Source: an uncultured Collinsella sp. (GTDB lineage: Bacteria > Actinomycetota > Coriobacteriia > Coriobacteriales > Coriobacteriaceae). From it: DNA of 64,000 nucleotides. Below are positions 51,256 to 53,644 of the stretch, piece by piece (position 1 is the first letter of the stretch; each line of letters opens with the position of its first letter). Under the pieces are notes generated by a model, which saw only the letters and a program-made list of their open reading frames with translations, had not been told where the DNA came from and did no database searches. The position numbers and the translations under genes are program-made. The stretch lies in the NCBI GenBank assembly GCA_900763515.1, contig CAAFKO010000019.1, positions 1,684-65,683 of the forward strand, written 5' to 3'.

Positions 51256-53307
51256 ATGCAGGAGGCATGGGAAGGCTTCAAGGAAGGCATCTGGACGGGA
51301 GAGGTTGACGTCCGAGACTTCATCCAGAAGAACTACACCCCCTACGAGGGCGACGAGTCGTTCCTCGTAGGTCCGACCGAGCGTACCAAGGAGCTGTGGG
51401 GCGAGGTTCTCGACCTGCTGCTTAAGGAGCGCGAGCAGGGTGGTGTCCTCGATATGGACACCAAGACCGTCACGGGTATCGTGAGCCACCCCGCTGGCTA
51501 CATCGATAATGCCCATCGCGACAAGGAGACCATTGTTGGCCTCCAGACCGACAAGCCGCTCAAGCGCGCTCTGCACGTCAACGGTGGTATCCGCATCGCT
51601 TGCCAGGCTGCCAGCCAGCACGGCTACAAGGTCGACGAGAACGTTGTCGAGCGCTACACCTTTGAGCGCAAGACCCACAACGCTGGCGTCTTCGATGTCT
51701 ACACCCCCGAGATGCGTGCTTGCCGCTCGGCTCACATCATCACCGGTCTGCCCGATGGCTATGGCCGCGGCCGCATCATCGGCGACTACCGTCGTGTCGC
51801 CCTGTACGGTGTCGACTACCTGATCAAGGACAAGGAGGCCCAGAAGGCTTCCACCCCGACGGTCATGACCGCCGACAACATCCGCGATCGTGAGGAGCTG
51901 CAGGAGCAGATCCGCGCCCTCGGCGAGCTCAAGATGATGGCCGAGACCTATGGTTTCGACATTTCCAACCCTGCTACCAACACGCAGGAGGCCATCCAGT
52001 GGATGTACTTCGCCTACCTTGCTGCCGTCAAGGAGCAGAACGGCGCTGCTATGTCCATCGGCCGTACCTCTACGTTCATCGACATCTACGCTGAGCGCGA
52101 CCTTGCCAACGGTACCTTCACCGAGGAGCAGATCCAGGAGTTCGTGGATCACTTCATCATGAAGCTCCGCATGGTCAAGTTCGCCCGTACCCCCGAGTAC
52201 CAGGCCCTGTTCACCGGCGACCCGCAGTGGGTCACCGAGTCCATCGGCGGCATGGGTGTTGACGGCCGTACGCTCGTTACCAAGATGAGCTACCGCTACC
52301 TGCACACGCTCGAGAACATGGGCACCAGCCCCGAGCCCAACATGACCGTTCTGTGGTCGACCCGTCTGCCCGAGAACTTCAAGAAGTTCTGCGCCAAGAC
52401 TTCCGTCGCCAGCTCCTCGATCCAGTACGAGAACGACGACCTCATGCGCGTCTATCACGGCGACGATTACGGCATTGCCTGCTGCGTGTCCTCCATGCGC
52501 ATCGGCAAGGAGATGCAGTTCTTCGGCGCTCGCGCCAACCTGGCCAAGTGCCTGCTGTACGCACTCAACGGCGGTGTTGACGAGGTCTCCAAGAAGCAGG
52601 TCGGCCCCAAGTATCGCGCCGTCGAGGGCGATACGCTCGATTACGACGACGTTGTGGCCAAGTACAACGACATGATGAAGTGGCTCGCTGGCGTGTACGT
52701 CAACTCGCTGAACATCATTCACTACATGCACGACAAGTACTGCTACGAGCGCATCCAGATGGCTCTGCACGACAAGCACGTGCACCGCTGGTTCGCTACG
52801 GGCATCGCTGGCCTTTCCGTCGTGGCTGACTCTCTGTCCGCCATCAAGTACGCCAAGGTCCACCCCGTCCGTGACGAGAACGGCATCATCGTCGACTTCG
52901 AGACCGAGGGCGAGTTCCCCAAGTACGGTAACGACGACGACCGCGTCGACCAGATCGCTCACGACGTTGTGCATCAGTTCATGGAGTACATCCGCATGAA
53001 CGATACCTACCGCAACTCCGTGCCTACGACCTCGGTTCTGACCATTACCTCCAACGTCGTGTACGGTAAGAAGACCGGCTCCACGCCCGACGGCCGCAAG
53101 GCTGGCCAGCCGTTCGCCCCGGGTGCTAACCCCATGCACAAGCGCGATAGCCACGGCGCCATCGCTTCGCTGTCTTCGGTTTCCAAGCTCCCGTTCCGCG
53201 ATGCTCAGGACGGCATCTCCAACACCTTCTCCATCATCCCGAGTGCGCTCGGCAAGGAGGACCAGGTGTTCTTTGGCGATATCGACCTTGATCAGCTGGG
53301 CGAGTAA
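51256..53307 (+). CDS. pflB: Pyruvate formate-lyase catalytic core lacking the glycyl-radical C-terminal domain
   Basis: 683 aa, collinear with E. coli PflB from [24 protein letters not shown] through the catalytic GIACCVS to [19 protein letters not shown]. It then has 12 unrelated residues and TAA 53305-53307. No RVSGY motif is present. Confidence 0.85.
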
Positions 53308-53392
53308 CTATTGTTAGTGCTATACTAACAATAACGATTACTGATTAGTGCGCCGGTTTCGGCCGGCGCCTATTAATCGAAGGAGACACATT

Positions 53393-53644
53393 ATGAAGGT
53401 TTCTGAAGTTTCCGAGACCCAGGCCGATAACCTGGTCCACATGCTCGACGCTTACGCCGAGAAGGGTGGCCACCACCTGAACATCAACGTCTTCAACCGT
53501 GAGACGCTGCTCGACGCTCAGGCTCACCCCGAGAAGTACCCGCAGCTGACCATCCGCGTTTCCGGCTATGCCGTGAACTTCCACACGCTCACCAAGGAGC
53601 AGCAGGACGAGGTCATTGCGCGTACCTTCCACAACAAGTTCTAA
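53393..53644 (+). CDS. Autonomous glycyl-radical domain protein (PflB C-terminal domain / GrcA-like)
   Basis: 83 aa. AGGAG (53381-53385) lies 7 nt upstream of the [58 protein letters not shown] equals the PFL glycyl-radical segment. Confidence 0.85.

Follow-up and report, generated by a model that had tools for sequence, protein, structure and literature searches.

A pyruvate formate-lyase gene divided into a catalytic core and a separate glycyl-radical gene in Collinsella and distant lineages

The pflB-grcA3 locus

The window analysed here is a stretch of 64,000 nucleotides (nt) from an uncultured Collinsella sp. (assembly GCA_900763515.1, contig CAAFKO010000019.1), and the subject of this report is its pyruvate formate-lyase (PFL) locus, where a pflB gene that lacks the glycyl-radical domain is followed by a small gene, grcA3, that encodes this domain (Table 1). 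PFL has been described as the most widespread glycyl radical enzyme and belongs to central anaerobic metabolism (PMC13450708). An earlier note on this DNA, made from the letters alone, had proposed that the enzyme is divided here into a catalytic core and a separately translated radical subunit and that the division is not a lesion; the open reading frame (ORF) of 683 amino acids (aa), its GIACCVS motif, its stop codon (TAA, 53305-53307), the AGGAG and ATG of the small gene and the RVSGYAV motif were all found where the note had placed them, and the proposal itself is upheld by the conservation, selection and distribution described below.

Table 1. Features of the pflB-grcA3 locus and of the region downstream, in window positions
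Feature	Position	Strand	Remarks
pflB core, 683 aa	51256..53307	+	PFL barrel with active site, without C-terminal glycyl-radical domain; TIGR01255 match
Catalytic Cys409-Cys410 codons (= E. coli C418/C419)	52480..52485	+	Motif GIACCVS; alignment to E. coli PflB; invariant in alignment A2
Conserved acidic C-terminal tail, V671-E683 (13 residues)	53266..53304	+	Short, without Cys-rich module; tail motif; alignment with 38lb_A
Intercistronic spacer, 85 nt	53308..53392	+	Hairpin 1 53309-53333; hairpin 2 53343-53378; Shine-Dalgarno AGGAG 53381-53385
grcA3, 83-aa glycyl-radical subunit	53393..53644	+	NF038360 match; own ATG; frame differs from core
Palindrome, 63-nt arms 53667-53729 and 53733-53795, 84% complementary	53667..53795	.	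After grcA3
DegV-family gene	54081..54935	+	TIGR00762 157.5 bits; between grcA3 and pflA, outside the enzyme
pflA, radical-SAM activase	55101..55940	+	TIGR02493 283.1 bits (cutoff 231.75); Radical_SAM and Fer4_12 domains

The core alone is recognised as a PFL, scoring 1083.7 bits against TIGR01255, the formate C-acetyltransferase equivalog, for which the cutoff is 994.2, and it spans positions 1-665 of the 744 in that profile. It is 64% identical to residues 9-680 of E. coli PflB and is collinear with it through V680. The radical domain with RVSGYAV is not on the same polypeptide, positions 663-743 of the profile being matched by the 83-aa ORF instead, and the Pfam domain Gly_radical is likewise split across both ORFs, of which the core has positions 1-51 and the small ORF positions 50-105. 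Alignments to E. coli PflB place the break at residue 680/681 with no sequence lost or duplicated. Equivalents of E. coli R176, F327, W333, C418, C419, F432 and R435 have been kept in the window, as in all the split cores that were aligned; R176, R435, W333, F327 and F432 form the pyruvate site in the E. coli structures.

The radical glycine of the small protein is Gly58 within RVSGYAV (codon 53564-53566), and residues 8-80 align with E. coli PflB 679-756. The protein passes the NCBIfam model NF038360, named "autonomous glycyl radical cofactor GrcA3" (164.3 bits, cutoff 158), and its Collinsella homologues carry the GrcA3 label in NCBI records, whilst the GrcA model TIGR04365 (97.2 bits, cutoff 170) and the GrcA2 model NF008341 (100.7 bits against 145) both reject it. 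Although the radical domain aligns with YfiD residues 66-124, GrcA3 does not have the disordered N-terminus of around 60 residues that is found in GrcA/YfiD; it has only a 7-residue leader followed by a helix equivalent to PflB 681-695, and is PflB-aligned from residue 8 onwards. An exhaustive search of 1.84 billion representative sequences with GrcA3 gave 36 clusters at E <= 1e-30, and among the 150 best matches there was no full-length PFL and nothing longer than 440 residues, all being short proteins.

The two ORFs are separated by a spacer that is AT-rich, as had been claimed, with a G+C content of 43.5% against 60.3% in the core. Both of the hairpins proposed for it are also predicted here, the second extending somewhat further than first drawn, around a G+C stem at 53350-53369. 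The predicted fold of the spacer has a minimum free energy of -32.7 kcal/mol (z = -2.5) and leaves the Shine-Dalgarno sequence and the AUG unpaired. No Rfam family was matched at threshold in the spacer, a promoter scan of it found nothing and no ORF lies within its 85 nt, a homing-endonuclease gene included.

Two further observations concern pflB and its upstream side. An antisense open frame of 652 aa (51196-53154, minus strand) covers nearly all of the gene and is most likely a by-product of its high G+C codon bias (around 84% G+C at third codon positions), and not a gene. Between the KdgT-like gene upstream and pflB there is a strong G+C-rich hairpin (50828-50861; 15 pairs, 13 of them G-C) that is likely to be the terminator of the KdgT-like gene, in which case pflB and grcA3 would form a transcription unit of their own.

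Conservation and distribution of the split

It could be argued that an ordinary pflB has here been interrupted by a nonsense mutation or a frameshift, or only seems so through an error in sequencing, and that the downstream ORF is an untranslated remnant. Conservation has already refuted this reading. At least 1000 contigs carry the exact core protein, and at least 1000 the exact small protein, NCBI records of Collinsella aerofaciens among them. A scan with the core against one genome per GTDB species returned 80 loci, among them those of 51 Collinsella species-representative genomes that have a window-like tail, the 85-nt spacer (84 nt in one) and the 83-aa ORF. Together with the window these make up a set of 52 sequences with a single architecture, in which nucleotide diversity (pi) in the core is 0.0013 at codon positions 1 and 2 compared with 0.072 at fourfold sites, a ratio of around 0.02; the core is under strong purifying selection. 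The spacer is under constraint too, with 11 segregating sites in 85 positions (pi 0.020) against 145 in the 324 fourfold sites of the core. Both spacer hairpins are conserved within the C. aerofaciens complex and confined to it, where they may serve in the processing or stabilisation of the transcript or set the ratio of the two products.

A separate observation on the same 52 sequences is that synonymous diversity is low towards the 3' end (53266-53644), being 0.003 at third positions of the tail and 0.023 at fourfold sites of grcA3, much below the value given above for the fourfold sites in the core. The pattern is suggestive of a recent sweep or of recombination at the 3' end, or else of a constraint at the level of RNA.

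The split is peculiar neither to the genome of the window nor to the Coriobacteriia. All 27 of the more distant relatives returned by the same scan (74-88% identity) are split at the identical point, with a core that ends just past LGK-x-x-x-V and an acidic tail, followed by an ORF of 79-83 aa with RVSGYAV; as at the C. aerofaciens-type loci, the free-standing protein of around 80 aa is encoded directly 3' of a pflB without the domain in each of the 27. On the side of the Coriobacteriia these loci belong to Coriobacterium glomerans, another Coriobacteriaceae metagenome-assembled genome (MAG), Olsenella uli, O. phocaeensis, Fannyhessea and an Atopobiaceae MAG, and elsewhere to Sellimonas, Blautia, Lachnoclostridium, Catonella morbi, Christensenellaceae, Acutalibacteraceae, Ruminococcus, a Bacilli MAG and a Spirochaetales MAG; at least two phyla are covered. 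Such a recurrence of one split point, with a start codon and a Shine-Dalgarno sequence each time, is again not what a lesion would leave behind. The split goes back far and has been conserved by vertical descent; it does not stem from a recent insertion. In a neighbour-joining tree rooted on E. coli all split cores form one group, which, with a single outgroup, is merely consistent with one ancient fission of pflB; the shared tail motif agrees with such an event.

A different way to reconcile the two ORFs would be recoding, in which ribosomes bypass the spacer or shift frame over it to make a single full-length PflB. The first hairpin does begin immediately past the stop codon, and the take-off site of phage T4 gene 60, a case of bypassing, has a hairpin directly after its stop codon. 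The distant loci, however, show no fixed relation of frames and no conserved take-off or landing signals: spacer length varies between 4 and 308 nt, and the small ORF is met in each of the three possible frames relative to the core (12, 8 and 7 loci). Every one of the 27 small ORFs has its own ATG with a purine-rich Shine-Dalgarno sequence ahead of it at the correct distance, the hairpins are found only in the C. aerofaciens complex, and read-through would add the tail and the leader MKVSEVS to the fold as extra residues. The varied frames and spacers, taken with the separate start signals, point to independent initiation and rule out frameshifting or bypass as the general mechanism; for the locus of the window we consider recoding to be very improbable. 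Intein and intron readings of the split were dropped in view of the same survey of spacers and frames at 27 loci and the lack of an ORF in the spacer.

The reading as a pseudogene would appear to gain from the fact that pflB is not split in all relatives, and the earlier note had itself held that the pair would be reduced to a pseudogene if the locus carried, in read-level data or near-identical strains, an unbroken pflB of about 750 aa. Such alleles do exist. About 20 protein clusters of 745 aa are uninterrupted PflB with the N-terminus seen in the window, and they occupy the same chromosomal locus in assemblies of related Collinsella, with an identity to the window of 92-95% in the upstream flanks and, in one case (L001), with the MarR, adh_short and KdgT neighbours shared as well. 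The consequence drawn from them does not hold, however, as they are mosaics. Up to around residue 430 their identity to the window is 98-100%, and beyond it only 62-88%; in sliding windows the DNA identity is 96-100% before a breakpoint at about residue 440 and 62-78% after it, and the 3' third, the radical domain and the activase gene are only 62-80% identical in DNA. The PflA encoded beside these alleles is 49-56% identical to that of the window, for which the value with Coriobacterium PflA is 70%, and their 3' thirds are closest, at 82-84%, to split cores of the Clostridia type. We favour the view that the 745-aa alleles would have arisen by replacement of the 3' part, bringing in a foreign 3' third and activase, and that they are not repaired versions of the split gene. 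Fusion through a simple deletion of tail, spacer and leader was considered for them and ruled out by the breakpoint near residue 440 and the divergent PflA.

Mosaicism is not restricted to the uninterrupted alleles, as several split alleles of the same complex (689, 691, 711 and 714 aa) show it too, with breakpoints near residue 440 or 480. Overall, the mosaic alleles are 98-100% identical to the window up to about residue 440 or 480, whilst the last third is 60-90% identical and falls into several types, two of them uninterrupted (745 aa); the material comprises window positions 52570-53644, loci L001-L004 and proteins P0123, P0125, P0127, P0129, P0134-P0152 and P0236. The 3' third, with tail, radical domain and activase, appears from these comparisons to have been swapped as a unit. 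Some mosaic alleles could be assembly chimeras, given that the contigs are metagenome-derived and that the breakpoint falls in the most conserved stretch of pflB. At L001 the G+C content falls to 50% downstream and the composition there is not Collinsella-like, whereas L003 has a Collinsella-like composition on both flanks, and the flank compared is 94% identical to the window.

Two polypeptides as one probable enzyme

Taken as a whole we consider it highly likely that the locus encodes an obligate two-subunit PFL, made up of the core and GrcA3. The 683-aa core, which has no glycyl-radical domain, would form the barrel and with it the pyruvate pocket and the Cys-Cys site, and GrcA3, translated independently off the same transcript, would contribute the helix, tenth barrel strand, glycine loop and C-terminal helix that correspond to E. 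coli PflB 679-756. PflA would install the radical on Gly58 of GrcA3, which, once docked, would hand it to Cys410 and Cys409, and the charged complex would then convert pyruvate and coenzyme A (CoA) to acetyl-CoA and formate. Oxygen destroys a glycyl radical by cleaving the chain at the radical glycine; here only the 83-residue, 9-kDa piece would have to be given up, and fresh GrcA3 could re-arm the 76-kDa core, a potential advantage in repair.

There is precedent for parts of this scheme in E. coli, where GrcA/YfiD, like Y06I of phage T4, is a small PflA-activated radical domain that supplies the radical in trans to the Cys-Cys site of a PFL body without a working radical domain. YfiD activated by the PFL activase rescues oxygen-cleaved PFL (PMC8683613), and in vivo the PflB G734A variant of E. 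coli regains formate production through GrcA (PMC12338860). The arrangement nonetheless differs, since PflB of E. coli is a complete enzyme that GrcA serves as an unlinked backup after oxygen damage, whereas here the body is always without a radical domain and the small gene adjoins it downstream. Reportedly, the nrdA gene of phage Aeh1 is split by a homing-endonuclease gene and its two separately translated pieces reassemble; that too is an enzyme of radical chemistry in two polypeptides, but the 85-nt spacer of the window, unlike the Aeh1 interruption, holds no endonuclease gene.

A relative for which there is some experimental material is Fannyhessea vaginae. Two PDB chains named "formate acetyltransferase", which were assigned to this species by sequence, are about 74% identical to the core of the window and have the same split point and the same tail family: 38lb_A, of 739 residues, is the full core with its tail, and 38la_A, of 687 residues, is cut at the tail. 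No radical-domain chain from these entries matching GrcA3 was found. The F. vaginae locus (L086) has the core, 42 nt, a radical-domain gene of 80 aa and pflA. Both entries are missing from the Foldseek copy of the PDB (releases to 2026-04-08), which suggests a later release; no paper on them was found in the literature searched, and the system is probably already under study by someone. Function is supported indirectly by two findings in this species: in one transcriptome contrast F. vaginae grcA and pflB were the first and third downregulated genes (-18 and -14; PMC11979175), and the species secretes formate, of which around 90% is blocked by 1 mM hypophosphite, an inhibitor of PFL (PMC12208373).

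It might be suggested that the two-piece enzyme is active but favours another 2-keto acid, as a TdcE-like 2-ketobutyrate formate-lyase, or that it runs mainly in reverse. Substrate preference is not fixed by sequence alone, and E. coli TdcE is a close paralogue of PflB (PMC13450708). On the other hand the core lies above the equivalog cutoff of TIGR01255, every residue of the pyruvate site is conserved and the hypophosphite-sensitive formate of F. vaginae rises with added pyruvate (PMC12208373), and we would give such a preference only a slim chance.

The earlier note had read the 12 codons that follow the end of collinearity with E. coli PflB as unrelated sequence. They are instead the first module of a conserved tail, the presence of which is a further point against any lesion: 81 of 88 distinct tails of related cores fit L-G-K-x(2-4)-[VIE]-[FMLT]-x-[GDNS]-[DE], with the consensus V-F-F-G-D-L-D-L. 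The tails have a median of 32 residues after LGK and a mean net charge of -9, and 59 of the 88 hold at least three cysteines in a second module, such as E-N-P-V-A-C-C-D-C...S-A-P-E-G or P-D-C-A-C-C-E-P-N (tails, for example, at L054 5035-5130, L005 8038-8127 and L086 7041-7157), for which a metal site or a redox role would be guesses. The tail of F. vaginae, with 51 residues past LGK, has this module, whilst that of the window does not and is among the 13 without any cysteine. Kinship between the tail and the disordered N-terminus of YfiD was suggested by LGDIEF against LGDIEY and rejected, as a profile of the 88 tails scores YfiD no higher than 2000 shuffled sequences.

No such tail is present on E. 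coli PflB, and what it replaces may be guessed from an artificial version of the same idea, the engineered pair tPFL(1-695) and truncYfiD(61-127) (Andorfer et al., JBC 2021, PMC8683613). With PFL cut at 695 the binding of YfiD was undetectable and activation was poor, which led its authors to regard 696-733 as a recognition element (PMC8683613). The natural split lies 15 residues before that cut, so the helix in front of the cut stays with GrcA3, and the core ends in a conserved tail of its own. Since natural cores do without the 696-733 segment and yet keep the tail, the most economical hypothesis is that the acidic tail is probably a docking or recognition element for GrcA3.

There remains the alternative that GrcA3 is a facultative spare part for a full-length PFL encoded elsewhere, and that the truncated core is inactive or has some other role. 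The NCBI name of the small-protein family, "autonomous glycyl radical cofactor", would imply as much, although what the window holds is a truncated core paired with GrcA3. No other PFL is present in the 64-kb window, to which the scan for one was limited. A core that is under such strong purifying selection and has kept all of its catalytic residues is difficult to view as inactive; furthermore GrcA3 is always encoded directly 3' of a truncated core and usually 5' of pflA, and it starts where the core ends, with no overlap, in contrast to E. coli GrcA, which duplicates part of an intact PflB. We regard the spare-part alternative as quite unlikely.

The two-subunit reading has its own points to answer besides the limit of that scan. 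Association of the pieces, a radical on GrcA3 and enzymatic activity are what we infer from sequence throughout the split family, this organism included. The formate data from F. vaginae assume that the split PFL is the only PFL in that species, and the poor performance of the artificial E. coli pair makes it clear that function in trans is not automatic (PMC8683613). The Cys-rich module that most tails possess is missing from the tail of the window. Finally, the structure predicted for the core with 22 homologues is unusable (predicted local distance difference test score, pLDDT, 43.6) and gives no information on the tail; the matches to it in Foldseek were confined to E. coli PFL and further glycyl radical enzymes, with TM scores of around 0.3.

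A more far-reaching proposal, which we put forward tentatively and would rather doubt than believe as it stands, is that the split is a rechargeable-cartridge design which, in strict anaerobes of the gut and vagina, takes the place of a spare part. PflA would charge GrcA3 away from the enzyme, the acidic tail would capture and hold it in place of the E. coli 696-733 element, and GrcA3 and PflA, together with the tail and the final third of the barrel, would be a co-adapted module that is exchanged horizontally as a unit, even between phyla; horizontal exchange of the module is suggested by the mosaicism of pflB in the C. aerofaciens complex.

Neither a natural split PFL nor the term GrcA3 was found in the literature searched. 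A mechanistic paper of 2021 knows only YfiD and T4 Y06I as spare parts (PMC8683613), and YfiD is the sole one discussed in a review of glycyl radical enzymes from June 2026 (PMC13450708). What was already known is the name of the small-subunit family and the core structure of a relative; the additions made here are the family's breadth, its conserved tail, the evidence for independent initiation and the mosaic alleles. There is still debate about how the glycine loop, buried in the barrel, comes out to meet the activase and about how damaged enzyme is recognised by a spare part (PMC8683613), and a PFL with an always-separate 9-kDa radical domain would allow activation, docking and radical transfer to be studied separately. 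The natural split might also be a template from which to engineer spare parts for other glycyl radical enzymes. It occurs in abundant human-associated bacteria, Collinsella aerofaciens, Blautia and Olsenella and also Fannyhessea vaginae, which is associated with vaginosis; for bacteria linked to this condition PFL has been put forward as a drug target (PMC12208373), and the interface between core and GrcA3 could serve as a lineage-specific one. Split cores could be overlooked or wrongly scored by pipelines in which glycyl radical enzymes are filtered on length or on the glycine motif.

The flanks of the locus

A dedicated radical-SAM activase is present near the core, and the description of pflA as displaced behind a palindrome and a DegV gene is correct for the window. 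Elsewhere it does not apply, as pflA lies immediately 3' of the small gene in most of the distant lineages, and the displacement is restricted to the C. aerofaciens complex; DegV and PflA within 3 kb, as in the window, were seen at only 5 of the fetched loci. The label "E-family" that had been attached to the palindrome could not be confirmed, the core of its arm occurring at one site only within the window, and Rfam gave only sub-threshold matches to microRNA hairpins. The palindrome is probably the end of the pflB-grcA3 transcript and the boundary of a variable region. Similarity of most C. aerofaciens-type genomes to the window ends at about 53659-53833, with other genes beyond (in L009, for example, a LacI-type regulator stands past grcA3 in place of DegV and PflA), and this site looks like the edge of a variable island. 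The linkage of DegV and pflA persists on other contigs.

On the upstream side, window positions 48720-50876 were compared with the stretch ahead of pflB in L003 (1355-1429), from which the adh_short (48795-49661) and KdgT-like (49749-50789) genes of the window are missing, so that MarR adjoins pflB there.

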